From assembly GCA_964355075.1 (NCBI GenBank), contig CAYHCF010000006.1, positions 32,821 through 96,820 of the forward strand: a stretch of DNA of 64,000 nt. Direction: 5' to 3'. Both the position numbers and the translations under genes were made by a program. This DNA is from an uncultured Chitinophaga sp. (GTDB taxonomy: Bacteria > Bacteroidota > Bacteroidia > UKL13-3). Of this stretch, positions 44,297-59,762 are shown in pieces. Position 1 is the stretch's first letter. Every line of letters begins with the position of its first letter. The notes beneath the pieces were generated by a model. The model was not told where the DNA came from and ran no database searches. It saw nothing but the letters and a program-made list of their open reading frames with translations.

Positions 44297-46318
44297 ATGA
44301 AAAAAATTATACCTGGGATTCCGAAATATTTAACACTGGTTTTAAAAATTGCCAGTGTTTTTTTGTTATTAGGAATTGTTGGATATTTTTCATTACGCGG
44401 CTATTTTTTGAACAAAGCAATAGAGAAGATTCAGAATAAATTAGCCATAAAATACAATACCCGACTTTGGGTGAGAGAGGCTGGTTTCAAAGGATTTACT
44501 ACCGTTTCCTTAAAAGGAATACAATTAATTCCAAATGGAAAAGATACGCTGCTTTCTGTTGATGAATTCTCATTAAGCATAAAATTTTGGTATGCGCTTC
44601 TGGCAGATATCCGGATAAATGAGGTCTCACTTAGCAATGGATATTTACAATTAGTAAAAAAAGGGAATGACAAGAACTTCGATCAGTTTTATAAACAAAA
44701 GGGTGATACGTCTTCGGTTCAATCCCAAATAAAAGAGCCACCGGATGAGGAGAAAGTAAATTATGCCAGGGTGATCTATAACCTGATTGTAAACGGGTTA
44801 AATAAAGTTCCAAATAAAGTCACCATTCATCATTTCACTTTAAAAGGAATTGATGATAACCATTTTTTGAATTTGGGAATTATTCAACTTAGTATGATTG
44901 ATAAAAAATTGAGTTCTGTAATTCAGGTTCAATCCAGTGAAGTGAACCAGCAATGGCAATTCAGTGGCTTGGCAAACCCGGGTGAGAGACAAGCGGATAT
45001 TACCTTTAGCCGTCTGGATCAGGGCAATATTGTTTTACCTTATTTGCTGGAGCGCTTCAATTTGAAAGTTGGGTTTAATTCCCTTCGTTTGCAATTGAAT
45101 AATGTCAGCTTTGATGATGATGAGTTAAGAATTAATGGAAGTGCTTCTATTGACTCCTTTATGGTGAACCACGCAAAGATTTCAAAAAGAGACGTAATGA
45201 TTCCTAAAGCTAAATTTGATTATGCCTATGTAATTGGAAGTAATTATATTTCATTGGATAGCTCTACTTCATTTGTTTTTAATGATTTCACAATACATCC
45301 TTTTATTAAATTTCAAAATGGCCCGGATACCATTTTTTATTTGAGTGTAAGGACAGAAAAAACAGAGGCGCAAAAGTTTATAAATGCCTTGCCGGAAGGA
45401 TTGTTCTCACACGTGAAAGGCATGGAAGCAACAGGAAGCTTCAGCTACAGACTTGATTTTATTTACAATGAAAATCATCCGAATGATATGGTTTTTGAAA
45501 GTAAATTGGAAAAGGATAAATTAAAAATTACCCGGTATGGGGAAGCGAACCTCAGCAAACTCAACAATGAGTTCACTTATTTACCAACTGAAAACGGCAG
45601 ATCGTTGCGACCTGTTTTTGTAGGCTTGGCGAATCCCTATTATACCCCTTTAGATCAGATTTCAACCCTACTTAAAAAAACAGTTCTAACTACAGAAGAT
45701 CCTTCATTTTACTGGCATCATGGATTTGTTACCGAGGCTTTTCGTCAATCGATCGTGAAGAATATCCGTACCGGCAGATTTAAACGCGGAGCAAGTACCT
45801 TAAGTATGCAGTTGACGAAAAATGTTTTCCTGACCCGGGAAAAAACCATTTCACGTAAATTGGAGGAAATACTGCTGGTCTTTATTTTAGAAAATAACTA
45901 TATCTGCACCAAAGACAGGATGTTTGAAGTTTATCTGAATATCATTGAATGGGGTCCTGATGTTTATGGAATAGGTGAGGCTTCTCAATTTTATTTTAAT
46001 AAGAAACCCATTGATCTTACCCTGAGCGAAAGTTTATTTTTGGCGACCATTATCCCCGGCCCAAAACATTTTATGTGGCGCTTTGGAAAAGATGGAACGC
46101 CTAAACCATTTCTTGAAAGAACCTATAGATTTCTATCCAATTTAATGATTATCCGAAATTTGCTGATACCTGAGGATACCCTTGGATTAACGCATAAGGT
46201 CGTGATTACCGGACCGGCACGAAAATACATCATCAAAAATGATTCCCTGGTTAATGATACGTTAATCGAACAGGAGCTTGAACTGCTTCATAACCCGGGA
46301 GAACGTGAAGAAGATTGA
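44297..46318 (+). CDS. Monofunctional peptidoglycan glycosyltransferase (GT51 domain) with ~440-aa N-terminal extension
   Basis: 673-aa ORF with one N-terminal TM helix. GT51 motifs occur only in the last ~220 aa: TTEDPSFYWHHGF, RGASTLSMQLTKNVFL, RKLEEILL and KDRMFEVYLNIIEWG. There is no transpeptidase domain. Confidence 0.8.
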   Translation: MKKIIPGIPKYLTLVLKIASVFLLLGIVGYFSLRGYFLNKAIEKIQNKLAIKYNTRLWVREAGFKGFTTVSLKGIQLIPNGKDTLLSVDEFSLSIKFWYALLADIRINEVSLSNGYLQLVKKGNDKNFDQFYKQKGDTSSVQSQIKEPPDEEKVNYARVIYNLIVNGLNKVPNKVTIHHFTLKGIDDNHFLNLGIIQLSMIDKKLSSVIQVQSSEVNQQWQFSGLANPGERQADITFSRLDQGNIVLPYLLERFNLKVGFNSLRLQLNNVSFDDDELRINGSASIDSFMVNHAKISKRDVMIPKAKFDYAYVIGSNYISLDSSTSFVFNDFTIHPFIKFQNGPDTIFYLSVRTEKTEAQKFINALPEGLFSHVKGMEATGSFSYRLDFIYNENHPNDMVFESKLEKDKLKITRYGEANLSKLNNEFTYLPTENGRSLRPVFVGLANPYYTPLDQISTLLKKTVLTTEDPSFYWHHGFVTEAFRQSIVKNIRTGRFKRGASTLSMQLTKNVFLTREKTISRKLEEILLVFILENNYICTKDRMFEVYLNIIEWGPDVYGIGEASQFYFNKKPIDLTLSESLFLATIIPGPKHFMWRFGKDGTPKPFLERTYRFLSNLMIIRNLLIPEDTLGLTHKVVITGPARKYIIKNDSLVNDTLIEQELELLHNPGEREED

Positions 46319-47588
46319 AAAAATTCACTATCTGTATTTTGCATTTGTTGCAGAATTGCTTCTGATATTTTATTTGAGAAATGATATGGGTTTTATTTTG
46401 AGCCCGATATTAATCTTAACTGCCGGACTCTTTTTGTCTGTTTATCCGGTTTTTTTAATAAAAGGCATACCTGTATCGAATGAAGACCGAAAAAGTGTTA
46501 TTCGAATAATCAGCAATAAAGACAAAACGCTGAACTGGATTGTATTTGCAGGTTTATCTCTTGTATTCATAGTTTGGTCGTATATATTGTTTCAGAATAA
46601 TCCAATTAATATCAGGCAATCGGATATCATACCTTTTATCAAAGAAGTTTTGGTAAAGCGGTTTTTGGCAAATGAAAATGTATATGCCCCTGTACAATTT
46701 AATGATTATGGGGTTGTATTTACGCCAAATTATTTGCCATTTCAGTGGGGACCCTTTTCAATTGCGGCCATATTGAAAATTGATTTTCGCTGGATTTATG
46801 TTTTTGCATTTTTGGGTGCAGCAGCCTACCAGAATTTTCATTTTCAAAAAAGTAAAATTGCAAAATCAAAGTTGATGGGTCTGAGTGCTTTACCTTTTCT
46901 GATCGTATTTTCAATTTATTTAAAGCAACCTGTTGATGTAGCCCATTCAATAGAAATATTAACACTTTCTTATTATTTCTTCCTTGCCACAGCTTTATTC
47001 ATTAAAAGAAATTCTGTAAAAGGTATAGCACTTACGCTTCCTTTGTTATCTCGTTATTCATTTCTGTTTTGGTTACCGGTCTATTTTTACGGTTTATGGA
47101 ATGACAATCGTAAAAAATGCATCATTACCGGATTGTTTTTTCTGGCATTTATCAGCGTATTTTTTGTAATCCCGTTTGTAATTCCCAATCCAGATTTCCT
47201 AAAATCCTTTAATAATATTTATTTGCAGGGTGCCATAAGGGAGTGGAGTGGCCAATCCTGGCAACATCCAGGAGACAAACCTTTTCAGCTATTTCAGGGA
47301 ATGGGATTTGCCAGTTGGTTTTATTGCTTTTACGAAGGCACCTTAGAAGAGAAGATTTTAGCGCTGAAATGGGTTTTGGTGGGAGTTTGTTTTTTGAGCA
47401 TGCTTATTCCAATTCTATATCATCATAAAGTACGTAAAATTATTAGCTCTGAACTTTTTGCTTTGCTATCTCTGAAGTTTTGCCTGACCTTATTTTACGC
47501 ATTTATTTTGGTACCTTACATATACCTATTCTGGATACCACTCATTGTAAGTGTAGTAATTATCAACAAAGTAAGTGTTGAACCTTAG
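46278..47588 (+). CDS. Polytopic integral membrane protein, possible GT-C-type glycosyltransferase
   Basis: 436-aa ORF with many hydrophobic segments and an acidic first-loop segment (NIRQSDIIPFIKE). The start is ambiguous (TTG 46278 or GTG 46305), and either choice overlaps the GT51 gene. Confidence 0.55.
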   Translation: MNCFITRENVKKIEKIHYLYFAFVAELLLIFYLRNDMGFILSPILILTAGLFLSVYPVFLIKGIPVSNEDRKSVIRIISNKDKTLNWIVFAGLSLVFIVWSYILFQNNPINIRQSDIIPFIKEVLVKRFLANENVYAPVQFNDYGVVFTPNYLPFQWGPFSIAAILKIDFRWIYVFAFLGAAAYQNFHFQKSKIAKSKLMGLSALPFLIVFSIYLKQPVDVAHSIEILTLSYYFFLATALFIKRNSVKGIALTLPLLSRYSFLFWLPVYFYGLWNDNRKKCIITGLFFLAFISVFFVIPFVIPNPDFLKSFNNIYLQGAIREWSGQSWQHPGDKPFQLFQGMGFASWFYCFYEGTLEEKILALKWVLVGVCFLSMLIPILYHHKVRKIISSELFALLSLKFCLTLFYAFILVPYIYLFWIPLIVSVVIINKVSVEP

Positions 47589-47674
47589 GTTTAACTTTAG
47601 TCCTTTCTAAATCCTATTCTTTTTCTGATAAGATGAGTGGTTGGTTCTACTAATTGCAATTTGAAATTATAGCT

Positions 47675-47709
47675 TTAACTTGAGGTCGCATTTTGCGACT
47701 TCAAGTTAA
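47675..47709. terminator. Perfect-looking hairpin between convergent genes (possible bidirectional terminator)
   Basis: ttaacttgaggtcgca-tttt-gcgacttcaagttaa, with ~15-16 bp arms containing one G:U-type mismatch. No long T-run on either side. Confidence 0.5.
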
Positions 47710-47761
47710 GATTAATTTGTTATCTCACGGACTGTTACCGTTTGATAATTGCCAGAAACAA

Positions 47762-48472
47762 CTACGAAGCTACAATATAAATGGACTGACTTACGGCTCT
47801 TAGCACAGGAATTCTTTCTAAAAGATCTCCAATAATAATGGAAGGCTTAACCAAACTTTCCGGAATGCCCGGAAGCAAGAAATCTCTATATGAGACCGAA
47901 ATATCAGTGAAACCAGACTGTTTTAATTCTTTGCGGATAAATGATTTACTGAATGCCATTTCATCCGGTTCAAGGTGTGCTTTTTCTCTAAAATACGGGT
48001 AGGTGAAAATTAAATGAACATAGGGGTTATAAATATTGGGTTCCCAAAAAATGATCTTCCCATTGGGCTTCAATAATTTCTTTAAATTAACCAGGGCTGT
48101 ATCCAAATGATGATACAGATGATGTAGGATGCCATTACCTACAATATAATCGAATTTCTTTTCTTTAAAGTCACCAATTTTGTTAAAATCAAGAAAATCA
48201 TATTGTAATTTTGGATGAATAAAATTCTTTCTGGCTTCCTCAATAAAGGGAACGCATAAATCGGTGCCTAATACATGCATATTGCTTTTTTGTGCGAGCA
48301 TAAATGCGATATCACCGGTACCACAACCAATCTCCAAAATAGTGCCATTCGGATCCATCTTCATGGTTTCTATCATGGCATCACATCTTCTCTCAGCCCT
48401 GATCTGCGTACTTTTACTATCTGCCCACCCCTGATTGTACCCCCTGTCGTCCTTTTTATTGTTATCGTTCAT
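47762..48472 (-). CDS. Class I SAM-dependent methyltransferase
   Basis: 236-aa ORF with motif I ILEIGCGTGDIAFMLA and post-I VLGTDL. It is the last gene of the tkt-SDR::GT2 operon, with a 19-nt spacer. Confidence 0.85.
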   Translation of the reverse strand: MNDNNKKDDRGYNQGWADSKSTQIRAERRCDAMIETMKMDPNGTILEIGCGTGDIAFMLAQKSNMHVLGTDLCVPFIEEARKNFIHPKLQYDFLDFNKIGDFKEKKFDYIVGNGILHHLYHHLDTALVNLKKLLKPNGKIIFWEPNIYNPYVHLIFTYPYFREKAHLEPDEMAFSKSFIRKELKQSGFTDISVSYRDFLLPGIPESLVKPSIIIGDLLERIPVLRAVSQSIYIVAS

Positions 48473-48491
48473 TGCAACTTATTTAACTAAC

Positions 48492-50420
48492 TCAATATGT
48501 TTTCCTATATATATTTCTTCGGATAAATTTTGGTCTGCGTTTGGTTTCCTCAAGAATTTTGGCCTGGTATTCTCCAAGAACTGAAATACCCAGCATCTGC
48601 AAGCCACCGAAAAATAAAATCAAAACAATGATAGTGGTTACCCCATGCGGATTACCCGGAAACATAAAATAAAAGATGATTTGAAGGAGAATAGCCATAA
48701 AAGAAATGATGGTTAACGACCACCCCAGATAAGTCAGCAATTCTAAAGGTACATAACTAAAGCTGAAGATTGCTTTGCGCGCCCAGGCAATATTTTTTCG
48801 CCAGTTATTGGTGGTAACGCCAAACATTCTTTCCGGACGGATATAATCTACACCGGTTTGCCTGAAGCCAACCCAGGCTCTCAGACCTCTTAAAAACTGA
48901 TCCGTTTCAGGTAGTTTAATAATTTCATTCACCACTTTTCTGTCCATCAGGGCAAAATCACCGGCATCTAATGGAATAGGTACATAACTCACACTTCTGA
49001 ATAAACGATAGAATACCTTGTAAAAAAATACCAGACTTTGCTTGCCTTCTCTTCTCACCCGACGGCCAAAAATCACATCATAACCATTCAGGTATTCTTC
49101 ATAAAAATTTTCTATTAATTCCGGTGGATCCTGCAAGTCGCCGTCAAGCAGGATAACTCCATCTCCTGTTGAGATTTCCATGCCCGATAAGAAGGCACTC
49201 TGTGAACCAAAATTCCGGGAATGTTCTATGGCAATTACATGGTCATCTTTATCTACAAGTTTTTGCAGAATCTCATTGGTATGATCGGGTGAGCAATCAT
49301 TCACGAAAATAATTTCATAATCCACAATCAGTTTTTCAAAAACCTTTGTCAAACGATCATACATAAACGGAATCGCCTCGGCATCCTTATAACAGGCAAT
49401 AACAGCCGATAATTTATGTTTGATTTTATCCTGTACCAATTTCTTTTCATACAGCGGAATAGCATAGTTTTTTTGCCAGATATACGTTTTGGAGAGTCCT
49501 TCTTTTAAGCTGGTTTCACTTTCCCAATCTATCATTTCTTTGGCTTGGGATGCATCGCCATACCACTCTTTCAAATCCCATTTTCGGTTGGGCATATCCC
49601 CCCAATGCGGATCAACTTTGAGATCAAACAAATTTTTGATTTCTGAAGCGATATCTCTAATAGTGGTTTTCTTGTTACTGGCAATATTGAGCGACCGTCC
49701 TTTGATTTTTTGAATTTGGTTTGCCGACAATAAGGTGGCCAAAATGGCATCATCAATATACACAAAGTCTCTTGAAATATCAGGCTGAACCAAAGGAGGA
49801 TAGCTTCCTTTCATTCCTTCATCAATCAGTTTCGGAATAAGTCTGTCGGGTTCTTCATAGGGTCCATAGATCGAATAGTATCTAAGATTGGTGACCGGCA
49901 TTTCCTTCAGCGTTCCATAATATTTAATCATATGAGCTGCACTCACTTTTGTTACAGCATAATGAGAGTTTGGCAAGAACGGATCATTTTCTTTTGGAGC
50001 AGATGCATTGAGTCCATATTCTGAAGAACTACCGGCATGTACAAACGCATGAATGGCATATTTGGATGAGATTTCAAGAACATTTAAAAAGCCCATCACA
50101 TTGGTTTCATAAATCAATTCAACATCATTCTGCTTACTGTAAGCACCATAGGCTACCAAATCGAAAACGGTTCTGAATGAATGCGCATCAAATAATTTTC
50201 CTACCTGTTCTCTTTTTGTAATATTACAATGTAAAATGTATTGTGGATTTATATCATCCAGGCGCCAGGGAATAAATGGCTTGCTGGTCACTGCGAAAAT
50301 ATCTTGTCTGTAATTAAGAATAGTTCTTACAAGATTGGATCCCATAAAACCTCCGGCTCCAAACACCACAATAGGGCCCTGTAGCTTTAATACCTCGGTT
50401 TTTATTTTTTCGCTAGTCAT
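48492..50420 (-). CDS. Fusion protein: extended-SDR NAD-dependent epimerase/dehydratase (N) + GtrB/ArnC/DPM1-type polyprenyl-phosphate glycosyltransferase GT2 (C)
   Basis: 642-aa ORF. The N half has the Rossmann motif VVFGAGGFMGSNL, GSSSEYG and the catalytic YAVTK. The C half has VIACYKDAE, FVNDCSPD and LDGDLQDPP, then two C-terminal TM helices ending LGISVLGEYQAKILEETKRRPKFI. Confidence 0.85.
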   Translation of the reverse strand: MTSEKIKTEVLKLQGPIVVFGAGGFMGSNLVRTILNYRQDIFAVTSKPFIPWRLDDINPQYILHCNITKREQVGKLFDAHSFRTVFDLVAYGAYSKQNDVELIYETNVMGFLNVLEISSKYAIHAFVHAGSSSEYGLNASAPKENDPFLPNSHYAVTKVSAAHMIKYYGTLKEMPVTNLRYYSIYGPYEEPDRLIPKLIDEGMKGSYPPLVQPDISRDFVYIDDAILATLLSANQIQKIKGRSLNIASNKKTTIRDIASEIKNLFDLKVDPHWGDMPNRKWDLKEWYGDASQAKEMIDWESETSLKEGLSKTYIWQKNYAIPLYEKKLVQDKIKHKLSAVIACYKDAEAIPFMYDRLTKVFEKLIVDYEIIFVNDCSPDHTNEILQKLVDKDDHVIAIEHSRNFGSQSAFLSGMEISTGDGVILLDGDLQDPPELIENFYEEYLNGYDVIFGRRVRREGKQSLVFFYKVFYRLFRSVSYVPIPLDAGDFALMDRKVVNEIIKLPETDQFLRGLRAWVGFRQTGVDYIRPERMFGVTTNNWRKNIAWARKAIFSFSYVPLELLTYLGWSLTIISFMAILLQIIFYFMFPGNPHGVTTIIVLILFFGGLQMLGISVLGEYQAKILEETKRRPKFIRRNIYRKTY

Positions 50421-50430
50421 ACAAAAAAAA

Positions 50431-51345
50431 TTAATATTTAAAAAATTGTTCTAAAGCCATTTTTAATGGTTCTCCCGCCAATTGATTTTCTTCCTGATGC
50501 CATTTCTGATCACCGTAATTACCCGAAGGATATCCATGTGCACATAAGGAATGAACCTGCAAATTATCCGGATCAATACATGGATTTTTTAATAGTTGTA
50601 AGGCCAATAATTCCCCGATTCCACCTGCTTCATAATGTTCTTCTATGGTAAGAATCTTATGAGTTTGATTGATATCATTAATCAATTCCTCAGGGAACCC
50701 TACGAGAGGAATCTGTCCAATTGCCCAGATAGAAAGATTCAAATTCAATGTTTCATTTAGTTGATATGCATTTATAATAACCGGCCCAATTCCAATGAGC
50801 ACTCCTTTTGTTCCCTTTGTCAATTGTCGGAATGGCGCAAATGGCATAGCGGATTCAGCGCGTTTGATACTGTTATTTAATCGCAGATAATTGGGTCTTT
50901 TATCTAGCACCATTTGTTGTACTGCTTCGGCCACATCTTCATTAAAAACCGGGGCATAGATCTGCATATTTTGAACGGAACGCATGAGGGCAATATCTTC
51001 TAAGCAATGGTGGGTTGATCCCATAATTCCATATCCATAGCCACCCCCGTTACCAATAATTTTTACAGGCAGATTATGAAGCCCCAACTCATTTCTAATT
51101 TGTTCAAAGGGCCTGTTTACTACAAATGGAGCAATGCTATAAACAAAAGGCATAAAACCATCATAGGCTAAAGATGCGGCCACTGAGATCATATTTTGCT
51201 CTGAGATGCCCATATTTACAAAGCGTTCTCCCATAACCCCTTCAAGTTCTTCAAATGCCATAAACCCTAAATCTCCTGTTAAAAAAACAAAAGACGGATG
51301 GGTTTCAGCCAGATTAAGAAGCGATTCTGATAATTCTTTTCTCAT
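50431..51345 (-). CDS. Transketolase-family protein, C-terminal half (pyrimidine-binding + C-terminal domains)
   Basis: 304-aa ORF with FLTGDLGF, FVNMGISEQNMISVAASLA and GSTHHCLEDIALMR. Confidence 0.9.
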   Translation of the reverse strand: MRKELSESLLNLAETHPSFVFLTGDLGFMAFEELEGVMGERFVNMGISEQNMISVAASLAYDGFMPFVYSIAPFVVNRPFEQIRNELGLHNLPVKIIGNGGGYGYGIMGSTHHCLEDIALMRSVQNMQIYAPVFNEDVAEAVQQMVLDKRPNYLRLNNSIKRAESAMPFAPFRQLTKGTKGVLIGIGPVIINAYQLNETLNLNLSIWAIGQIPLVGFPEELINDINQTHKILTIEEHYEAGGIGELLALQLLKNPCIDPDNLQVHSLCAHGYPSGNYGDQKWHQEENQLAGEPLKMALEQFFKY

Positions 51346-51351
51346 GAATTC

Positions 51352-52146
51352 CTATTGGCGGTTTAGTTCGACCTGTAATAAATCATAATCATCCTGATTG
51401 ATGGGTAAATAATGGCAGCCCAATTTCCCTTCCATATTCTTCCAACCATTTCCCTTAATCGTATTGGCTATGATAACCAGGGGTTTTACAGCCTTTTCAA
51501 ATAAGTTTTTGAGTTCAGTCAATTCTTTTATTTCATGACCATTAACGACGTAAACATCAAATCCAAAACTTCTCAGTTTTTCATCTAAGGGTTCTATCCG
51601 CATCACCTCTTCCGTTTTACCAAAGCCTTGTAAAAAGTTTCTGTCTATGATCCAAATAACATTATTTAGCTGGTGTTGATGAATAAACAGAGCGGCCTCC
51701 CAGGTACTACCTTCATTTAATTCTCCATCAGAAGTAATACAAAAGGTCTTTCTGTCGGATTTCTTTAATTTGGAAGCAAATCCAAAACCTGCTGCAATAG
51801 ATAAACCATGTCCCAGACTACCTGTTGCAAATGGAATAGCGCTGTATTTATTTACCGGGGGATGGGCAGGAAGGGTGGTGTTATTTTGATAAAAAGTTAA
51901 AATCAGGTCTTCGGTAATTTCACCAGATTCGGCAAGAACACTATATAGGCAGGCCGCTGCATGACCTTTAGATAAGATCAGTTTATCCTGTTCCTGCATC
52001 CAGTGGAATTTGCTTACTGTCAATATTTCGGCACAGGACAGACTGGATCCAATATGTCCGGCATTGGCCATTCTATACATGTTTAAAAACCTGCGCTTTA
52101 TACTTATTACTTTCGTTTGGATATTTGCGTTAATTTCAATATTCAT
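51352..52146 (-). CDS. Transketolase-family protein, N-terminal half (ThDP diphosphate-binding domain)
   Basis: 264-aa ORF with AGHIGSSLSCAEIL, SKGHAA, GSLGHGLSIAAG and ITSDGELNEGSTWEA. Confidence 0.9.
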   Translation of the reverse strand: MNIEINANIQTKVISIKRRFLNMYRMANAGHIGSSLSCAEILTVSKFHWMQEQDKLILSKGHAAACLYSVLAESGEITEDLILTFYQNNTTLPAHPPVNKYSAIPFATGSLGHGLSIAAGFGFASKLKKSDRKTFCITSDGELNEGSTWEAALFIHQHQLNNVIWIIDRNFLQGFGKTEEVMRIEPLDEKLRSFGFDVYVVNGHEIKELTELKNLFEKAVKPLVIIANTIKGNGWKNMEGKLGCHYLPINQDDYDLLQVELNRQ

Positions 52147-52267
52147 CAGTTAATTAAAAAATTTCATGACTTGTTGTATATAAGTCTGAAAATATAATAA
52201 TTTATGCAGAATAAACAAAAGTAGATTTATTCTCAGATAATTTATTTCTTCGTACATTCGATGTAGA

Positions 52268-53860
52268 ATGAAAACAATAAGCAAAAATAGTTATCTCCCT
52301 ATATGGATCGGGTTCATTTATGTTGTAATTTGTTTTTTACCCATTCTAAAAAGCGGGCTTTATTCCGATGACCTGCCTAATTTTCAATTCAAAACCTATC
52401 AACCCAAAGTTAAGAATGAAAATGCGATTCAACTTGCTCTGCCAGCTATTGAGACCTGGAAATCGGCCGGGCGTTTCACTCCGGTTTCTTTTTTCTGGAT
52501 GGAGTTTGTTTTTAAAAATGTAAGCACCATTAAGAACTACAAATTAATGATATTTATATTAAATATTATGACCGTAATTATTTTCCTTATCTACTTGCGG
52601 GCCCTTAGAGTAAAAATAAATTACGGTATTTGGCTGATATGTTTCGGTTCGGTAATACAATACCGTATTGAATTTCATGATGCCTATACGAGTTTAAATG
52701 GCATGTATCAGGTATTGGCCATTTTTATATTTGCTAGTTTAATACTCCATTGTTATTACCTGATAAAGAGGAAAATGTGGCTTTTGATTTTGTCGGCTAT
52801 TTGTTTTGTTATCAGCATGTTGATTTCTGAAGTGGGATTGCTGGCGTTTTTCTTAGTCCCGTTTTCTGCTATCATTCTGAAAATACCATTTAGAAAATTC
52901 TGGCGCAGTTTTAACCTGTACCTTATCCTGTTCATGAGTTATCTTGCTTATGTTTTCTGGCTTCGGTATCATGTACAAGATAAGGATGTATATATAGGAC
53001 TTAAAGCTGGTTTTGATTTATGGGCAATGGGAGAACTATTGGTGAAACAACTTTATGCCACACTGCCATTAACAAATCTGCAGGATAAATCGGCCATTCC
53101 CATTGTGCTTTTTCACCAATTCACTGACCTAAAAAACCTGTTAGGTGTGATTGCTATGTTTCTGTTGGGATATCTGGCTTTTCGGAGCTATCAATTACAA
53201 CCGAAAAAAGAAGAAAAATACTTTAATTTTGCTCACCTGTTCCTTTTTGGTGCCATTCTGGTATTTCCCGCCTTATTTATTTTACCATCATTAAAATACC
53301 AGCAGGAGGTTAGGTGGGGGGTAGGATATTTGCCGGTTTATATACAAAATTTCGGAACAGCAACTTTGTTCACCTGTCTGTTTGAGTACGGTTTTCATAA
53401 TTTGAAAAGGTCAGGTTCCGTATATTCAACTGTTTTTTTTATCTTTATTGTTTTCAGTACATCCATTAATTTTTTGTTTAACCATGCTTTGATAAATACG
53501 ACTTCTTATAAAATTAGTTTTCCGGCTCAAGTGCTTTATGACAGCGTGAAAGAAGGGATTTTAAAAAATTGCGATGACGGAAGTACGATAATTCTTGGCA
53601 ATGATTTTTATTATAAATCTCCGGAATCTTACCATTTACTTTTTAAGGAGATTACCGGTAAGGATTTTAAAGTGGTTGATGCAGGCACAAATTTTACCAT
53701 GTCCGATTCTTCCCTTTGTTATTATTTAGATTGTAAACCCGGGAAAAAGGTAGTGGTTTCCCTTTACAGATTGAAGGGTTCAGACAACCAGACAAAAGTG
53801 CTAAATAAAAAATTTGAAAGGGATTGTAACATAGATGTAATAAAGGAAGACGGTATTTAG
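52268..53860 (+). CDS. Polytopic integral membrane protein, possible GT-C-type glycosyltransferase
   Basis: 530-aa ORF. The first ~400 aa are almost entirely hydrophobic segments, with an acidic first loop (GLYSDDLPNFQF). The last ~130 aa form a soluble domain. Confidence 0.55.
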   Translation: MKTISKNSYLPIWIGFIYVVICFLPILKSGLYSDDLPNFQFKTYQPKVKNENAIQLALPAIETWKSAGRFTPVSFFWMEFVFKNVSTIKNYKLMIFILNIMTVIIFLIYLRALRVKINYGIWLICFGSVIQYRIEFHDAYTSLNGMYQVLAIFIFASLILHCYYLIKRKMWLLILSAICFVISMLISEVGLLAFFLVPFSAIILKIPFRKFWRSFNLYLILFMSYLAYVFWLRYHVQDKDVYIGLKAGFDLWAMGELLVKQLYATLPLTNLQDKSAIPIVLFHQFTDLKNLLGVIAMFLLGYLAFRSYQLQPKKEEKYFNFAHLFLFGAILVFPALFILPSLKYQQEVRWGVGYLPVYIQNFGTATLFTCLFEYGFHNLKRSGSVYSTVFFIFIVFSTSINFLFNHALINTTSYKISFPAQVLYDSVKEGILKNCDDGSTIILGNDFYYKSPESYHLLFKEITGKDFKVVDAGTNFTMSDSSLCYYLDCKPGKKVVVSLYRLKGSDNQTKVLNKKFERDCNIDVIKEDGI

Positions 53861-53875: not shown

Positions 53876-54586
53876 TTAATCGGCTTTAAACAGACCGTAT
53901 TTAAATATGCAATAAATAGCCCGCAACCCATCTTTCCAGTTTATTTTTTTTCCCTCTTCATAGGTTCTTCCATAATAGGAAATGCCTACTTCATATATCC
54001 TGACTTTGGGAATTCTGCTGATCTTTGCGGTAACCTCGGGTTCAAAGCCAAATCTCTTTTCTTTCAGATGAATGCTTTTTATCATATCTGATCGGAACAA
54101 CTTATAGCAGGTTTCCATATCTGTTAAGTTTAAATTGTTAAACATATTTGACAAAAAGGTTAGAATATTGTTACCGATAGAATGCCAGAAAAACAGGATT
54201 CTATGAGGGTTTCCGCCAATAAACCTGGAACCATAAACGATATCGGCAAATCCATCCAAAACAGGTTTCAGCAAAATATTATATTCATTGGGGTCATATT
54301 CCAAATCAGCATCCTGAACAATAATAAAATCTCCACTGGCCTCTTTTATGCCGGTATGTATAGATGCTCCCTTACCCATATTTATATTATGTTCCACATA
54401 TTTAATATAAGGTTTTGATTCCATCTGATTTAAGATAATTTCTTTGCTGTTATCTGTGGAATAATCATTAACGATAATTATTTCTTTTTCTAAATCTCCG
54501 ATTAAATTTACCGCACCAACTTTGTCTAAAATCCGGTGAATGGTTCTGGATTCATTATAAACCGGTATGATTATGGATAATTTCAT
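53876..54586 (-). CDS. Glycosyltransferase family 2 (soluble, DPM1/Ppm1-like)
   Basis: 236-aa ORF with [30 protein letters not shown] and ETCYKLF. I see no TM segment. Its start lies 2 nt after the stop of the upstream 582-aa membrane-protein gene. Confidence 0.85.
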
Positions 54587-54588
54587 CT

Positions 54589-56337
54589 TTAATTTAGTTG
54601 ATATTGTTTTTTAAAGGTAGTTATTGTTACATGTTCAGCTTTAGCAGCAAAATCCCCATCGGAATGAATAGACAAATTAAATTTTGATGAAAAAAAATAG
54701 GTCGGAACCCTGACATAAAATGCATATTGATTCATTTGGTTTGCTTGGGTTAATGGGTTCAATACCCGTATTTTGTTATGTTTAACGGAATCTCCGTATT
54801 GCAAATTTGAATGAAGGGTAGCATTTACCCAGGATTCAAGTTTAAGCGTTGTTTCAATCTTTAGCCAAAATTCGGTCTCAGAATTAAATCCCGGTTTCTT
54901 GTCAAGATTCACTTCTGCTATGGTTTGAGAGGAATCAGCAGTTAATTTTATATTGATAAGCGAATCCCTCTGGAAAATAATTTCTTTCTGATAATTCCTT
55001 TCATTACTGATCCATTCGTCGGTATCCAGCAAGCTCAAATCAAGGGGAGTTGGATCATTATTTAAATAAATTCTTTGATAATATTGTCGGTTCATATCAT
55101 AGTAATGCAAGATCATTTTATTGTACTGCTTGATTTGAAACAGGTTTACTCCAATCAGATAGAGTCCAATCAGATAAAATAAATAGCTATATTTTTTTGA
55201 GTTGATTTTATGAATAATGGAAGCCAGCGGAAGTGCAAACATCGGGTAACTTTGAACCAATGCCCTGGTTGAATAGCTGCCGCCATATCTCCAATCGGCC
55301 CAGGAAATAATTATATAAATATTAAGCAAACAGAAATAAATAACAGATTTTTTGAAAGGATACTCCTTCATAAAAAACATGCCGACAATAAACAAAATAG
55401 TAACGGAAGTATAAATAAACCAACCTTTTTCCCAACCAAATAATACCCTGAAAAATGGATTTAAAAAATACCATTTACTGCCAACATCATATATATAGGA
55501 ACCTGTAGTTATTTTCCAGTAAATAAGTTGTGGTAGTATTCCTATTATACCGAACAAAATAACGAATCCAATTTGATTTTTATGTTTCTTTACTAATTCC
55601 CATTTTTTGGTAGCTTGTTCTTTGGTATGCGTATTCCACATTAATGGAATAAACAACATGATGGCCTCAGTGGGTCGGCCAATGGTTGCCAGTCCGATAA
55701 TGAATCCACAGATGGAGGCGTCAAGGAAGCTTGGTTTATGATGCCATCGTATCGTAAAATAAATGATTAGCACATATAAAAAGAAAAGAGGGGCATGACT
55801 TTGTCCGTTATCAATAGCGGCATATTGAATGGCATTCGTTGCCAGTACCAATAGTAATAAAGTTATACTGCTGGTAGAATCACTGAAATAATTTAACAGA
55901 ATTTTACGCAACAAAAATATAGCCAGAATGAAATAGAATAAAATCCCGAATGAGACTGCATATTGGTAGGGAGGAGAAAAACCATCAGGAGGGTAATCAC
56001 TGATATGGGCAATTATATGGCCAATAATAAAAAACGGTAATTGCAAAATGGCAATTCCACCTAAGTATTTAAAAACAAAATTTCCGTTTTCCAGTCTGGA
56101 GGCTTGATATATTTTCCCGCCGGAAAGAGAATAAGTACTGTCAATAGCAGGTAGCCATTCTAATTTGGAAACGTCATGGTAAATAAATACAGCAGGCAAA
56201 TACATATAATAACCCAGCGCATCCCATGTTGTAATTTTCAGCGTTTTATCGGAACCCATTCCTGAATATATAATCCGGTACTGAATAAGCAGGATGCCAA
56301 TAATTATGCAGGAAATAAATGAATATTTATTTTTCAT
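54589..56337 (-). CDS. ArnT/PMT-like (GT-C fold) membrane glycosyltransferase candidate
   Basis: 582-aa ORF with ~12 hydrophobic segments in the first ~420 aa, the first-loop motif [13 protein letters not shown], and a C-terminal soluble beta-rich domain. A promoter match lies at 56394-56424. Confidence 0.6.
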
Positions 56338-56393
56338 GACTCATTCGGCATTAAAAGGGAATCAGATTCTGTTCTTATCCGACACACTCTTGT

Positions 56394-56424
56394 CAAACAT
56401 AATCATTTTTGTAAAATCTGCAAA
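56394..56424 (-). promoter_or_regulatory. Bacteroidota sigma-A-type promoter match (TTTG-N19-TATGTTTG) for the GT-C/GT2 operon
   Basis: On the minus strand, TTTG is the complement of 56421-56424 and TATGTTTG the complement of 56394-56401, ~57 nt upstream of ATG 56337. Confidence 0.45.
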
Positions 56425-56486
56425 ATGCATGGAAAGAGAGAGAAATTGGATTTATTGAGCTTTTCTTTAATCATATTCAAAGAAAA

Positions 56487-56494
56487 TATTTTTG
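56487..56494 (+). promoter_or_regulatory. Isolated -7 box match (TATTTTTG) upstream of the DUF2079-like gene
   Basis: TAnnTTTG match 58 nt upstream of ATG 56552, with no convincing -33 TTTG at the expected spacing. Confidence 0.3.
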
Positions 56495-56551
56495 GACATC
56501 GTAATTGAATTGATATGTTTGTATTCAACTTGGTTTACGTATAAAGGTTCT

Positions 56552-58057
56552 ATGATGATTCGGGAAAAGTCTGTTTCATGCGCCAAAATTGCCAAAGGTT
56601 ATTACCTGGTCATGTTATTTTTTGCGTGTGTATTTTGTTTGGTATCATTTGTGAATCATTACCAGTTCAGAACCTATTCATTTGATCTGGGACTGTATAA
56701 TCAGGCCATTTTTGATTATTCTCATGGAAGATTGAATCAATCAACTTTACTGGAACCTGATTTTCACCAGAGAAATCAACTGGCGGATCATTTCGATTTG
56801 TGGCTGATTTTAATTTCCCCGCTTTATTATATTTTTGGTAATTCTACCCTTTTGCTGATTCAAATACTCGCCATTCTATTTGGCGGTTTGGGTATTTCAA
56901 AATCAACTGAAACATTTAGTAACAATAAATGGATTCCCTTTCTCGCAATGATTCATTTTTTCAGTTTGTGGGGAATCTATGCTGCTCTGTCATTTGATTA
57001 CCATAGCAATGTAATCGCAGCCATGTTTGTGCCCTGGCTATTTTATTTTTTGCAACGAAATAAAAGCATTCCTGCTGTATTGATGTTTGTTTTAATTCTT
57101 ATTTGTAAGGAAAATATGGCGCTTTGGGCTGTGTTTATAGGCAGCGGTTTTGCATGGTATTACAGAAAGGATAAGTTGAAAAGAAATTTATGCCTGGGCC
57201 TTATGTTTTTTGCCATCCTGTATTTTGTTCTGGTAATGAAAATTTTTATGCCATCTTTTTCCATCGATAGCCAAAAATACATTCATTTTGACTTTAAGGC
57301 CTTAGGTTCAAATTTCATGGAAGCGATACAAACTATTCTGCAAAGGCCAATTTACGCGGCATCCCTGTTATTTGAGAGTCCGTATATTCAGCATGAAACC
57401 TATTGGATTAAAACAGAATTGTTTTCTTTTATTTTATTATGTGGAGGTTTTGCCCTGTTTTTTAATCCTGCATTTATATGGATGCTATTGCCCATTTTGG
57501 GTCAAAAATTGTTTAATGACGATTTCACCAAATGGGGAATTAATCACCAATATTCGATTGAGTTTGCACCCATACTGAGCCTGGCGTTATTTATCTGGAT
57601 TACTCAGATAAAATACAATAATAAAGTTAAAATAGCCCTGATTATGATAGCCATTACAATAGCTATGACTATCAAAGGTATGCAATCGCGTATCTCAATT
57701 TGGTATGATGAAAAGGATGAAAATATTTTCTGTATGAAACATTATCAAAGAGCCTTTGATATTAAAGAAATTCATAAGGTAATCAAACAGATCCCACCTG
57801 AATATTCTGTGAGTGCAAGTAGCACTCTGACGGCTCACCTGGCCGGACGAAAGCAAATTTATCAGTTTCCTTATATAAATAATGCTCAATTATTGTTGCT
57901 GTTAGCTGAGCCTGAAAGTTATTATCCTTTATCTGAAAGTGAATTCAAAACAAAATTTGTTGCGCTTCAGGCTGATAGCAACTATGTTTGCACGCTAAAT
58001 CACAATCCATTTTATATTTTTGTGAGGAAGGATGTTTCGTTTTCTGTAAAGGATTGA
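56552..58057 (+). CDS. DUF2079-like polytopic membrane protein (predicted GT-C-type)
   Basis: ORF 56492-58057. ATG 56552 is preferred because a TAnnTTTG box overlaps the TTG start. The motif YSFDLGLYNQAIFDYSHG recalls DUF2079. The protein has many TM segments and a C-terminal soluble domain. Confidence 0.6.
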   Translation: MMIREKSVSCAKIAKGYYLVMLFFACVFCLVSFVNHYQFRTYSFDLGLYNQAIFDYSHGRLNQSTLLEPDFHQRNQLADHFDLWLILISPLYYIFGNSTLLLIQILAILFGGLGISKSTETFSNNKWIPFLAMIHFFSLWGIYAALSFDYHSNVIAAMFVPWLFYFLQRNKSIPAVLMFVLILICKENMALWAVFIGSGFAWYYRKDKLKRNLCLGLMFFAILYFVLVMKIFMPSFSIDSQKYIHFDFKALGSNFMEAIQTILQRPIYAASLLFESPYIQHETYWIKTELFSFILLCGGFALFFNPAFIWMLLPILGQKLFNDDFTKWGINHQYSIEFAPILSLALFIWITQIKYNNKVKIALIMIAITIAMTIKGMQSRISIWYDEKDENIFCMKHYQRAFDIKEIHKVIKQIPPEYSVSASSTLTAHLAGRKQIYQFPYINNAQLLLLLAEPESYYPLSESEFKTKFVALQADSNYVCTLNHNPFYIFVRKDVSFSVKD

Positions 58058-58072
58058 TTTTATTTGTTAACC

Positions 58073-59041: not shown

Positions 59042-59762
59042 GTATTATGAGCTTGAGCGAACCAATTGGTGGTTTAGAGCAAGGCAGGAAATAATCAGGT
59101 CACAGATCGTAAAATTATTTGGCAACAGAAGGGATTTATCCATTTTGAATATCGGAGTGGCAACAGGTGCTTCCAGTATCATGTTACAGGAATTTGGAAC
59201 CGTGAAATCAATAGAATACGACCCTGATTGTTATCGGTTTGTGAAAGAAAATGTGGATATTGACATAGAACCGGGTTCAATATTGGAACTTAGATTTAAA
59301 GCAAATTCATATGATCTGGTATGTTCATTTGATGTGATTGAACATGTTGAAGATGATAAGCTGGCAGCAACTGAAATGATGCGGGTATGTAAGCCCGATG
59401 GGTTTGTTTTTGTTACGGTTCCGGCCTTTATGAGTTTATGGAGTCATCATGATGAGGTTAACCACCATTGTCGCCGTTACCGAATGAACGAATTGAAATC
59501 CTTGTTTATTTCTTCAGGCCTTATTCAATTTTATTCTTATTTTAATTTTTTATTGTTTCTTCCGATTTATTTAATCCGAATCCTGAGCAAAATATTTCCT
59601 GTAATGTTTAAGCGCGAAGGCTCGGGTTCTGATTTTGGCATGTTTAAATCAAAAAGTTTAGATTCAATTTTACATAAATTGTTTATATTGGAGAAAGTCC
59701 CGTTAAAATTTGGAATAAAATTCCCATTCGGGGTCTCCGCGCTCCTGATCTGGAAAAAATAA
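59019..59762 (+). CDS. Class I SAM-dependent methyltransferase
   Basis: 247-aa ORF with motif I ILNIGVATGASSIMLQE and a later DLVCSFDVIEHVEDD. It overlaps the GT2 gene by 23 nt. Confidence 0.8.
   Translation: MDKNYYLEYYELERTNWWFRARQEIIRSQIVKLFGNRRDLSILNIGVATGASSIMLQEFGTVKSIEYDPDCYRFVKENVDIDIEPGSILELRFKANSYDLVCSFDVIEHVEDDKLAATEMMRVCKPDGFVFVTVPAFMSLWSHHDEVNHHCRRYRMNELKSLFISSGLIQFYSYFNFLLFLPIYLIRILSKIFPVMFKREGSGSDFGMFKSKSLDSILHKLFILEKVPLKFGIKFPFGVSALLIWKK

Follow-up and report, generated by a model that had tools for sequence, protein, structure and literature searches.

In the Arn pathway (ArnA, ArnB, ArnC, ArnD and ArnT), an SDR-type enzyme acts on a UDP-sugar, a family 2 glycosyltransferase (GT2) loads the modified sugar on undecaprenyl phosphate (Und-P), and a GT-C enzyme follows; ArnA is itself a precedent for two pathway activities in one polypeptide. 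Redox chemistry can instead take place on the lipid-linked sugar, as in the decaprenyl-phospho-ribose 2'-epimerase, whose DprE2 component is a classical SDR that needs the flavoenzyme DprE1. Epimerase and lipid loader are encoded by separate genes in PgfE/PgfS of Streptococcus mutans and LpsL/RgtE of Rhizobium. O-antigen glucosylation in Shigella and Salmonella uses the GtrA/GtrB/Gtr* proteins, with a GtrB structure available from Synechocystis (sll0501). In Citrobacter youngae O2, an SDR tailors the sugar within a three-component system, where the GalE-like ORF13 diversifies a pentofuranose on its lipid-phosphate donor for a periplasmic GT-C (PMC11127046). ThDP-dependent branching is represented by YerE, AviB1/B2-type enzymes and the split transketolases proposed for miharamycin and amipurimycin; hydroxyacetyl addition to a keto sugar after an oxidoreductase is proposed, and undemonstrated, for such split-gene transketolases, and the transketolase cases listed in that source all come from Streptomycetes and have a proposed function (PMC12247030). 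In paulomycin biosynthesis, ketoreduction follows ThDP-dependent branching (PMC4753412).

The locus described here lies within a window of 64,000 nucleotides, the whole stretch of DNA that was analysed, from an uncultured Chitinophaga sp. It encodes an SDR–GT2 fusion in an operon with a two-gene transketolase and a methyltransferase (Table 1). It resembles the Gtr* systems in its GtrB fold, DXD motif, acceptor arginines, putative catalytic Asp and two transmembrane (TM) helices, as well as in the GtrA and multi-TM genes directly downstream of proteobacterial cassettes and the GT-C genes in the window. Unlike those systems, it has an N-terminal SDR fusion, a split transketolase and methyltransferases, and tblastn, a weak test for such small, divergent proteins, found no match to GtrA in the window or in Chitinophagales loci. 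The operon includes the split transketolase and methyltransferases as integral parts, so its sugar is presumably something other than plain glucose. The Arn pathway shares the logic of an SDR-type UDP-sugar step, GT2 loading of Und-P and a subsequent GT-C step; however, the SDR described here lacks the decarboxylase motif, its fusion partner is the lipid transferase itself, and the cassette carries a ThDP enzyme instead of an aminotransferase, formyltransferase and deformylase. The C. youngae system likewise couples a GalE-like SDR to a lipid-phosphate donor, but its donor comes from PRPP through a UbiA-type synthase rather than a GtrB-type GT2, the SDR is separate and there is no transketolase. 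In the ThDP branching systems, too, an oxidoreductase works alongside a split transketolase, with methylation or reduction common downstream; in contrast to the present cassette, they act in antibiotic or CDP-sugar O-antigen pathways and none is coupled to a polyprenyl-phosphate glycosyltransferase. With DprE1/DprE2, to which the earlier note had compared the fusion, the locus shares the concept of redox on a lipid-linked sugar; the analogy failed in that the SDR half is of the extended NDP-sugar type rather than classical, and no DprE1-like or FAD-oxidase gene was found among the Pfam-scanned operon and flanking genes of the window and three proteobacterial loci.

In the literature searched, no publication specific to an SDR–GT2 fusion or a transketolase–GtrB pairing was found; a 2026 Actinoplanes paper reports a split transketolase with a methyltransferase in a different, Wzx/Wzy-type cluster, and gives no function. 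The fusion itself is common; what has gone unreported is that it almost always follows immediately after a two-gene transketolase, which points to an as yet uncharacterised route to an unusual sugar of the cell surface. We favor, with a probability of roughly 55%, the reading that the ORF encodes a functional two-domain enzyme within a conserved cassette, and that the cassette represents a Gtr/Arn-style lipid-linked glycosylation system whose sugar would be remodelled by the SDR and a ThDP enzyme.

Table 1. Position, strand and supporting evidence of the fusion gene, its operon and neighboring features in the window
Feature	Position	Strand	Evidence
436-aa multi-TM protein, no Pfam match, GT-C-like modelled fold	46278..47588	+	Hydropathy, structure model
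17-bp-stem hairpin between convergent operon end and 436-aa membrane-protein gene	47674..47710	+	Consensus scan only
Class I SAM methyltransferase, last operon gene, 19 nt after fusion	47762..48472	-	Pfam
SDR–GT2 fusion ORF, 642 aa	48492..50420	-	ORF listing, two-domain Pfam and NCBIfam matches, full-length orthologues
Two TM helices and C-terminal tail, aa 557-642, including GEYQAK(621)ILEETKRRP	48492..48752	-	Hydropathy, AlphaFold, GtrB alignment
GT-A catalytic and juxtamembrane region, aa 336-555	48756..49415	-	phmmer, residue mapping, Foldseek
Junction, aa ~305-335	49416..49508	-	AlphaFold/DSSP helix, conservation
Extended-SDR domain, aa 1-325	49446..50420	-	Pfam, PDB alignments, conservation, AlphaFold, Foldseek
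Split transketolase C-terminal (Pyr) subunit (TK-C), 10 nt upstream of fusion	50431..51345	-	Pfam Transket_pyr; PDB split transketolase 6yaj, E 2e-27
Split transketolase N-terminal (ThDP/PP) subunit (TK-N), first operon gene	51352..52146	-	Pfam Transketolase_N; NCBIfam transketolase, 206 bits
530-aa protein, at least 7 TM helices, no Pfam/NCBIfam match, divergent from TK-N	52268..53860	+	Kept in close relatives L042 and L047
Rest of glycosylation island	53876..59762	.	Pfam and NCBIfam, paralogue comparison

The fusion protein and its two halves

The ORF listing gave a single frame with an ATG start and no internal stops. Pfam matched Epimerase (PF01370) at aa 17-247 (E 8e-40), GDP_Man_Dehyd at aa 19-311 and Glycos_transf_2 (PF00535) at aa 338-500 (E 2e-26). 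The identical 642-aa protein is present in NCBI, ENA and Logan records, while the more than 120 orthologue clusters at 73-100% identity are all 625-659 aa long, with query coverage of 97-100%. We asked whether an assembly or frameshift artefact, or a decaying pseudogene, might have joined two genes. No support for such an origin was found, and the recurrence of the protein in three sources, the hundreds of full-length orthologue clusters, the 90 species genomes that encode the fusion, the conserved linker and the intact catalytic residues of both halves all argue against it, making it exceedingly improbable. The covalent fusion of an extended SDR to a GtrB/ArnC-type lipid-phosphate glycosyltransferase, as proposed in the earlier note, is genuine: the two complete modules described there correspond to aa 1-325 and aa 336-642, each of the motifs it cited was found (in the forms GAGGFMGSNL, GSSSEYG, YAVTK, DGDLQDPP and GEY...KRRP), and the ORF is uninterrupted across independent assemblies, so that the junction is no artefact.

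The GT2 half aligned by phmmer with Synechocystis GtrB (5EKP) at E 2.6e-63 and with ArnC at ~1e-31, its best NCBIfam match was PgfS, and Foldseek matched it to GtrB at a TMt of 0.74. The GtrB residues D94, D96, R122, R125, D157 and R200 (PMC4728340) align with D426, D428, R454, R457, D488 and R531 of the fusion, respectively, and R290 aligns with K621, so this position stays basic; all 7 residues are invariant in 49 fusions. They include the DXD metal/donor motif (D426-G-D428, aligned with D-A-D of 5EKP), the counterparts of the acceptor-phosphate arginines R122 and R200 (R454 and R531), and that of the putative catalytic D157 (D488). Hydrophobic helices were placed at aa 561-579 and 592-617 by hydropathy and at aa 557-586 and 594-627 by AlphaFold, which added a terminal strand at 634-638; both methods agree with the two C-terminal TM helices noted earlier. 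The juxtamembrane region and C-terminal hairpin of the GtrB family are likewise present, the former modelled at low confidence in the monomer. Homology shows the C-terminal half to be a GtrB-type polyprenyl-phosphate glycosyltransferase, predicted to transfer a sugar from an NDP-sugar to undecaprenyl phosphate at the cytoplasmic face. Its product would be the lipid-linked donor for a periplasmic GT-C transferase. In the AlphaFold model, the junction is a single unbroken helix that links the last SDR helix to the first GT-A strand (DSSP 305-332, pLDDT falling from 95 to 71). Residues P322-K327 are invariant within Chitinophagales, and Y324 and K327 do not vary even from Bacteroidota to Proteobacteria.

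The SDR half was modelled by AlphaFold at a pLDDT mostly above 90, and Foldseek matched it to extended SDRs at TMt values of 0.69-0.86. Searched as a whole, the model of the fusion had its halves matched separately, with no discrimination between epimerase and dehydratase, and no solved structure bearing both domains was among the Foldseek matches (TMq ≤0.45). The key residues of the SDR half are the Rossmann glycines of the N-terminal GxxGxxG (G21, G24 and G27, all invariant), S131-S132-S133-E134-Y135, Y154xxxK158, R193, R217-D218 and R279/D282. The triad S131, Y154 and K158 aligns with T126, Y149 and K153 of the B. cereus UDP-GlcA epimerase (6zl6). Across 128 representative SDR domains, Y154 and K158 were kept in 127-128, E134 and Y135 were invariant, and R193, R217-D218 and R279/D282 were highly conserved. 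The segments R217-D218-F219 and R279-K-W-D282, invariant in 49 fusions, align with the RDY/RDF and RkGD motifs of Thermotoga GalE, and we take them to have a UDP-binding role, as in E. coli GalE. By homology, this half is shown to be an extended SDR, predicted to be catalytically intact and bearing the Ser-Tyr-Lys triad only.

Its best PDB matches were 4-epimerases, namely WbgU together with Thermotoga GalE, MoeE5 and the B. cereus UDP-GlcA 4-epimerase, the last 3 of which served as alignment partners. No NCBIfam model came near its cut-off, the best being LegB and RmlB (~97 bits, compared to 475 and 365, respectively), and consequently no subfamily could be assigned. In UDP-GlcA decarboxylases, the catalytic Thr/Ser opens a Thr/Ser-Ser-Glu motif and the catalytic Glu stands two residues further on; the SDR has S131-S132-S133 there, and E134 falls one place later, at the usual Val. 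This bears on an ArnA-like route, in which the SDR would oxidatively decarboxylate UDP-GlcA to a UDP-4-keto-pentose before lipid loading. Such a route draws on the extended SDR placed upstream of an ArnC-like transferase in both systems and on the match of the GT2 half to ArnC. Against it are the missing Thr-Ser-Glu, an acidic residue at the Arg185 position (see below), the absence of any ArnA or UXS structure among PDB matches at E≤1e-10 and of any ArnA/UXS model among the best 25 NCBIfam matches, and a cassette in which aminotransferase, formyltransferase and deformylase are not conserved. We regard this route as very unlikely, and the ArnA/UXS analogy drawn in the earlier note did not withstand these comparisons.

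In RmlB/GMD 4,6-dehydratases an Asp-Glu (or Ser-Glu) acid/base pair directly follows the catalytic Thr, whereas the SDR has S132 and S133 at these positions and scored 96 bits against the RmlB cut-off of 365. UDP-glucuronate 4-epimerases combine Thr/Ser-Ser-Ser with a carboxylate-binding Arg185 (B. cereus numbering). The SSS motif is present, as is S183 (equivalent to T178), and 3 of the 5 top PDB matches fit that assignment; however, Arg185 aligns with E190, and the position is Asp or Glu in 49/49 fusions and 99 of the 128 representatives, so we rejected it. The NAD-ribose Asp that 4zrm, 5u4q and 6kv9 have at the end of strand beta2 is also absent, its place taken by T45; position 46 is Arg in 75/128 representatives, and Arg predominates across the clade. 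The missing Asp suggests that the SDR may use NADP(H) or an exchangeable cofactor.

The split transketolase and its cassette

The operon reads TK-N, TK-C, SDR–GT2 and methyltransferase, with intergenic gaps of 6, 10 and 19 nt. The hairpin beyond its end is likely a bidirectional terminator. Among 45 Chitinophagales loci, TK-C was found in 40, TK-N in 37 and a methyltransferase orthologue downstream of the fusion in 33; one or two methyltransferases also follow the fusion in Terrimonas and in the proteobacterial loci L082 and L083. We also examined a set of 73 metagenome and genome loci, of which those with at least 2 kb of upstream flank numbered 50. All 50 carry a transketolase subunit (TK-C upstream in 47, TK-N in 49). 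The same transketolase–SDR order occurs in Undibacterium, a Stellaceae MAG, a further proteobacteria-like fusion locus and Methylobacterium aquaticum. The operon link to the transketolase was absent from the earlier note.

Full-length fusion orthologues are encoded in 90 Chitinophagales species (GTDB), and more distant SDR–GT2 fusions were found in Beta- and Alphaproteobacteria and in Parcubacteria. Whatever rarity the earlier note may have implied, the architecture is widespread across bacterial phyla. In other loci the same SDR clade is unfused and a short GT2 gene follows it separately. Of the 73 loci, 38 are fused and the remainder unfused, the adjoining short GT2 of unfused loci lacking TM helices and keeping the lipid-phosphate arginines. 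The fusion is one of two interchangeable gene arrangements, and in either form the SDR clade is almost universally accompanied by the transketolase. Cultured hosts include Methylobacterium aquaticum MA-22A, Undibacterium spp., Taibaiella koreensis and Terrimonas sp.

The transketolase retains its cofactor machinery. In TK-N, H31, H62, H95 and N170 are invariant in ~113 orthologues and D140 (S-D140-G) is kept in 110/113; in TK-C, E49, R2 and H112 are conserved. The ThDP motif, cofactor-activating Glu and catalytic His are all present. In contrast, S345, H416, D424 and R474 of human transketolase, which presumably bind the sugar phosphate and the C2-OH, correspond in TK-C to M29, G100, M108 and a gap. 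G100 is invariant and M108 is found in 103/120; the genuine split transketolase 6yaj retains THAG and GEDG. Judged by these residues, the cassette enzyme is one that has kept its predicted ThDP and catalytic residues and lost those for sugar-phosphate and C2-OH binding. Because its substrate pocket is remodelled, we consider that it is not a housekeeping transketolase.

The remaining neighbors are those of a glycosylation island. Beyond the 530-aa protein, a candidate partner, lie genes for a 236-aa GT2 (-), a 582-aa PMT_2/GT-C (-), a DUF2079 protein (+), a stand-alone GtrB paralogue (+) and a methyltransferase (+). The paralogue (58064-59041, TTG start) shares 37% identity with the GT2 half across 301 residues. 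The window also contains several GT-C or GT-C-like genes. The 436-aa membrane protein is, from its modelled fold, a candidate periplasmic transferase that is not specifically linked to the fusion; we rejected it as a dedicated GT-C partner, as its homologues adjoin a GtrB-like GT2, DUF2079 or PMT_2 rather than the transketolase–SDR pair. In Proteobacteria (Undibacterium, Stellaceae), GtrA and a 10-TM protein are encoded directly downstream of the cassette, and in cultured Chitinophagaceae 8-9-TM proteins are.

A proposed route to the lipid-linked sugar

That the SDR–GT2 gene shares an operon with a split transketolase and a methyltransferase alters which chemistry is most likely. The SDR would supply the redox step(s) of a route that remodels a sugar and depends on the ThDP enzyme. 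A sugar hydroxyl would be oxidized to a carbonyl, on which the transketolase would form a C–C bond, yielding a two-carbon branch or a chain extension; the new keto group might then be reduced, and O-methylation would follow the keto-group stage. This carbonyl-then-C2-transfer chemistry is inferred from co-occurrence and residue patterns. The NADP(H) hint, based on the absent Asp and on T45/Arg46, fits a reductase better than an oxidase, which would leave the source of the carbonyl unexplained.

The SDR could instead be a UDP-hexose, UDP-HexNAc or UDP-hexuronate 4-epimerase feeding the fused GtrB, with the transketolase unrelated or merely co-regulated. A simple epimerase role is conceivable given that the closest solved relatives are plain 4-epimerases; the triad without a dehydratase acid/base pair and the PgfS match of the GT2 half point the same way. 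In addition, 5/45 Chitinophagales loci have the fusion with no transketolase within 10 kb, and in these 5 the neighbors are unrelated and include no aminotransferase-type alternative tailoring enzyme. Association with the SDR clade in 50/50 and 40/45 loci from at least 2 phyla, with GT2 fused or not, is hard to reconcile with a bystander transketolase, as is the remodelling of its substrate pocket. The SDR also lacks the NAD-anchoring Asp of the aligned epimerases and has Glu or Asp in place of the Arg185 of UDP-GlcA epimerases. On balance, we consider simple epimerization unlikely.

A second alternative concerns the order of events, for which the earlier note had offered both direct channelling of the modified nucleotide sugar and redox after lipid linkage; either may hold. 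The GT2 might make Und-P-hexose first, with the membrane-held SDR oxidizing or reducing the lipid-linked sugar and the transketolase acting on the resulting lipid-linked keto sugar, following the logic of DprE1/E2 or C. youngae ORF13. Genetic work has led to the inference that a GalE-like SDR tailors a lipid-linked sugar (PMC11127046), it would be natural to find consecutive steps fused, the SDR is set beside the GT-A domain by a helical linker that is rigid and conserved, and the short GT2 of unfused loci keeps the lipid-phosphate arginines. However, R193, R217, R279 and D282, the counterparts of GalE-type NDP-binding residues, are highly conserved, and the ribose-binding Asp would have no role on a lipid-phosphate sugar. 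Moreover, unfused SDRs pair with a GT2 lacking TM helices, and a Roseibium plasmid has a terminal nucleotide-sugar SDR immediately before a GtrB-like gene. This order is somewhat unlikely, though less so than simple epimerization. Since the SDR keeps the NDP-binding residues of GalE-type enzymes, we lean modestly towards tailoring of the nucleotide sugar before lipid loading.

Returning to the remodelling route, we tentatively propose, as a specific version that we consider somewhat less likely than not, a widespread, undescribed pathway in which the SDR makes a keto or aldehydo sugar and the remodelled split transketolase then builds a C–C bond on it. The C-branched or chain-extended (C8), often O-methylated product would be loaded on undecaprenyl phosphate by the fused GtrB and delivered to the envelope by GT-C enzymes.

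Should the SDR be a plain epimerase, the finding would shrink to two known activities joined in a common gene fusion. If the proposal is true, the product would be the first envelope sugar to depend on a transketolase, the pathway would be the first to build a ThDP step into lipid-linked Gtr/Arn-type glycosylation, and it would provide many tractable examples for the proposed keto-sugar-branching split transketolases of Streptomyces antibiotic pathways. Through their decoration of LPS, teichoic acids and proteins, Gtr- and Arn-type systems have consequences for phage receptors, antimicrobial-peptide resistance and serotypes. A conserved cross-phylum cassette that combines an SDR-fused lipid loader with a non-canonical transketolase predicts an undescribed class of surface sugar together with a ThDP-dependent sugar-tailoring reaction.

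An intact SDR-GT2 fusion and its distribution

The earlier note had read the 642-aa window ORF as a covalent fusion of an SDR to a GtrB/ArnC-type GT2, and this was borne out by the intact ORF, by its Pfam domains and by full-length orthologues. Pfam assigns aa 17-247 to an NAD-dependent epimerase/dehydratase domain (GDP_Man_Dehyd profile, aa 19-311) and aa 338-500 to a family-2 glycosyltransferase domain. Both hydropathy and the AlphaFold model indicate 2 C-terminal TM helices, and in the model aa 305-332 form a single unbroken helix leading from the last SDR helix to the first GT-A strand. Junction residues P322-K327 are invariant among Chitinophagales fusions, and Y324 and K327 stay invariant once proteobacterial fusions join the alignment. 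A check for a frameshift at the junction found none: the identical protein is recorded in three sources, 90 species encode full-length orthologues, and more than 120 clusters with 73-100% identity range in length from 625 to 659 aa, with query coverage of 97-100%. A frameshift or assembly artefact at the junction is excluded.

The 90 species were obtained by scanning one genome per GTDB species; the named ones are all Chitinophagales, among them Taibaiella koreensis and Terrimonas sp. R1, both in culture. When the SDR half alone was searched with HMMER against 1.84 billion cluster representatives, 455 clusters came up at E<=1e-30, with named members including Undibacterium (Betaproteobacteria) and a Parcubacteria MAG. 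Among the best 150 clusters, ~21 are 600-690 aa long with a C-terminal part matching the window GT2 half. These ~21 fused proteins are interleaved with stand-alone SDRs of ~320 aa in a NJ tree, indicating that fusion or fission happened repeatedly. The Undibacterium protein, used as query, recovered another 120 full-length fusion clusters (named: Undibacterium, Rhodocyclales and Stellaceae), and one more fusion is encoded on the Methylobacterium aquaticum MA-22A megaplasmid. In P0186, a 508-aa protein from the representatives search, an apparent GT2 fragment lies N-terminal to the SDR, the reverse order, although the gene call could be truncated. Databases label the fusions 'NAD-dependent epimerase/dehydratase family protein' or 'dolichol-phosphate mannosyltransferase', and a literature search on SDR-GT2 fusions found no paper. 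The fusion itself is widespread and already in database catalogues, though unstudied, and any implication that it is rare is not supported.

Features of the window and of compared loci (L-numbers)
Feature	Coordinates	Strand	Remark
SDR-GT2 fusion ORF, 642 aa	48492-50420	minus	ATG start, uninterrupted in ORF listing
TK-N	51352-52146	minus	first gene of window operon
TK-C	50431-51345	minus	second gene of window operon
Class I methyltransferase	47762-48472	minus	follows fusion in window operon
Hairpin, strong, perfect 17-bp stem	47674-47710		between convergent ends of methyltransferase and 436-aa-protein genes
436-aa membrane protein	46278-47588	plus	no Pfam match; called protein begins ~46305
530-aa protein, >=7 TM helices	52268-53860	plus	divergent from TK-N; no Pfam or NCBIfam match
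Stand-alone GtrB paralogue	58064-59041	plus	37% identical to GT2 half
Short GT2-like gene after unfused SDR	L089:8920-9627
Short GT2-like gene after unfused SDR	L092:8972-9655
Short GT2-like gene after unfused SDR	L117:4335-5024
Short GT2-like gene after unfused SDR	L110:10400-11110

Linkage to a split transketolase

The window operon that holds the fusion runs TK-N, TK-C, fusion, methyltransferase, with intergenic gaps of 6, 10 and 19 nt, TK-N and TK-C being the N-terminal (ThDP/PP) and C-terminal (Pyr) subunits of a split transketolase. The hairpin beyond the methyltransferase is likely a bidirectional terminator. Of 45 Chitinophagales loci spanning 20 kb or more, 40 have TK-C and 37 have TK-N upstream of the fusion, and 33 have the methyltransferase downstream. 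A second, independent set combined loci from a metagenome scan, for which the nearest unfused SDRs served as seeds, with three genome loci from proteobacteria-like fusions. It comprised 73 loci, 38 of them fused; a TK subunit was found within 6 kb in all 50 whose upstream flank reaches 2 kb or more (TK-N in 49, TK-C in 47). The window gene order also occurs in Undibacterium cyanobacteriorum, in the NCBI assembly locus L082, in a Stellaceae MAG and in M. aquaticum. Directly downstream, the Undibacterium and Stellaceae loci carry a GtrA-family gene and a 10-TM protein (the latter locus also has methyltransferases), L082 has two methyltransferases in their place, and in cultured Chitinophagaceae the operon goes on to encode two methyltransferases and an 8-9-TM protein of ~680 aa. 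On these gene orders the conserved core comprises split transketolase, SDR and GT2, to which methyltransferases, GtrA and large membrane proteins are often added.

The fusion is solitary in 5 of the 45 Chitinophagales loci (L027, L040, L061, L065 and L077; 73-75% identical), where no transketolase or methyltransferase orthologue was found within 10 kb of it; in L027 and L040, the two loci scanned, its neighbours are unrelated, e.g. peptidase M3, PI-PLC and TonB receptors. In L129, L134, L141, L155-L158 and L162, TK-N precedes the fusion and TK-C lies 2-4 kb downstream.

TK-N retains the three catalytic His and the ThDP/Mg motif with its Asn, and TK-C retains the cofactor-activating Glu (E49), R2 and H112, all (near-)invariant in about 113-120 orthologues. 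TK-C was aligned to human transketolase, with numbering via the 4kxu and 3ooy chains. Human S345, H416, D424 and R474, which bind the substrate phosphate and C2 hydroxyl, correspond in TK-C to M29, an invariant G100, M108 (103 of 120) and a gap; Carboxydothermus, with a genuine split transketolase, has THAG and GEDG at those positions. Judged by these residues, TK-N/TK-C look active but non-canonical, with an altered acceptor pocket, and would not represent a housekeeping pentose-phosphate enzyme. The SDR-GT2 unit pairs near-obligately with a remodelled split transketolase in Bacteroidota and Proteobacteria, a linkage that appears to be unreported.

Predicted activities of the two halves

Pfam, PDB matches and residue alignment agree with the domain assignments of the earlier note for both halves. 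The GT2 half matches Synechocystis GtrB (5EKP) across its full length at E 2.6e-63 and ArnC at E about 1e-31, its top NCBIfam model is PgfS, and Foldseek matched the fusion model to GtrB with a TMt of 0.74. The GtrB residues essential for function, D94/D96 (DXD), R122, R125, D157, R200 and R290 (PMC4728340), align in 5EKP with D426/D428, R454, R457, D488, R531 and K621 of the fusion, which are invariant in 49/49 fusions from two phyla. By these alignments the GT2 half ranks as a genuine enzyme of the GtrB type, and the match together with the retained residues makes loading of an NDP-sugar onto undecaprenyl phosphate a well-supported prediction. The stand-alone paralogue belongs to a separate operon (DUF2079-GtrB-methyltransferase). 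In 20 of 22 unfused TK-linked loci the SDR is followed by a short GT2-like gene, whose conserved products (226-241 aa) have no TM helices and lack the DXD and the D157 equivalent, but keep the equivalents of R122, R125 and R200, the lipid-phosphate arginines. They may be non-catalytic or mechanistically different GtrB relatives.

The SDR half is predicted to be catalytically complete, with S131, Y154 and K158 as its triad in residue-level alignment. Its nearest solved structures, at ~90 bits, are the 4-epimerases Thermotoga GalE, MoeE5, B. cereus UDP-GlcA epimerase and WbgU, with RmlB-type dehydratases scoring just behind, and it may be a plain 4-epimerase. S132 and S133 occupy the positions of Asp-Glu in dehydratases and of Ser-Glu in decarboxylases; the family-invariant E134 falls one position later, where Val is usual. 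With this Ser-Ser pair, and no ArnA or UXS chain among PDB matches at E<=1e-10, the proposed analogy with the ArnA C-domain is not supported; nor is that with DprE2, the window domain being an extended SDR. In its SSS motif and S183 the domain looks like a UDP-GlcA epimerase, but that identity was rejected on account of E190, which stands at the Arg185 of those enzymes (B. cereus numbering), the residue that binds the substrate carboxylate. Since this position is D or E in 49/49 fusions, a uronate substrate is unlikely. The Asp anchoring the NAD ribose in aligned epimerases is T45 here, and the next position is mostly Arg across the clade, which by general SDR rules suggests that the cofactor is NADP(H) or can exchange; if NADP(H) is preferred, as seems likely, the domain would more plausibly be a reductase than an oxidase. 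R193, R217-D218 and R279/D282 are invariant and correspond to the NDP-binding motifs of GalE-type enzymes, a role we assume from E. coli GalE for R217-D218 and R279/D282. Because of their conservation, we lean towards a nucleotide sugar as the SDR substrate.

Membrane partners and a possible pathway

A tblastn search for GtrA came up empty in the window and in the Chitinophagales loci, although it is a weak test for small divergent proteins. The 436-aa protein belongs to a family of ~100 clusters whose named members are all Bacteroidota. Its AlphaFold model has very high confidence (pLDDT 92.5, pTM 0.93), its 17 best PDB matches are all of GT-C fold (STT3, AglB, PIGU, PimE, ArnT, ALG9 and AftB) at weak E values of 0.02-0.9, and S106-D107 in its first loop are almost invariant; on this modelling it looks like an undescribed GT-C-like family. 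It was rejected as the cassette's own GT-C partner: it is part of the locus's conserved backbone, and its homologues elsewhere show no link to TK-SDR. The 530-aa protein is kept in the closest relatives, L042 and L047. In L166, a Bacteroidota MAG locus, the order is RRF, transglycosylase, 436-aa homologue, DUF2079 and methyltransferase; between the 436-aa protein and DUF2079, window 43713-59762 holds the TK–SDR/GT2–methyltransferase operon, the 530-aa protein and a GT2–PMT_2 pair, and looks like a mosaic glycosylation island. A Roseibium aggregatum plasmid (L168, NZ_CP045632.1) carries rfbF, rfbG, a DegT-family gene, a methyltransferase, an NAD(P)-dependent SDR, a GtrB-like GT2, GtrA and GT39, and appears to encode a three-component system supplied by a CDP-sugar pathway; comparable two-piece matches occur on Ensifer and Sinorhizobium chromids.

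Homology identifies a lipid-loading domain of GtrB type, a catalytically complete SDR, a ThDP enzyme, SAM methyltransferases and, in some lineages, GtrA, while the multi-TM protein of some lineages could be a candidate GT-C transferase. In the route we propose, the SDR would make a carbonyl on the sugar, reduce one, or both, the transketolase would form a C–C bond at that carbonyl, and the product would be methylated, loaded on Und-P, flipped and passed to an envelope acceptor. The literature offers partial precedent. For miharamycin and amipurimycin, whose sugars are branched, an oxidoreductase step followed by a split-gene transketolase was proposed but never demonstrated, and the bioinformatically listed split-gene cases are from Streptomycetes only (PMC12247030); in paulomycin, ThDP-dependent branching precedes ketoreduction (PMC4753412), and Citrobacter youngae O2 has a three-component system whose sugar is diversified by an SDR (PMC11127046).

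Tailoring may follow lipid loading, as the fusion would tether the SDR to the membrane and the short GT2 retains its lipid-phosphate arginines. We lean towards tailoring before loading, given the conserved NDP-binding residues of the SDR and the Roseibium plasmid, where the terminal nucleotide-sugar SDR is immediately 5' of the GtrB-like gene. We put the probability that the cassette is a truly new transketolase-dependent envelope-sugar pathway at roughly one in three. The cassette is best read as a Gtr/Arn-type system of lipid-linked glycosylation with sugar tailoring, to which it adds a split transketolase.
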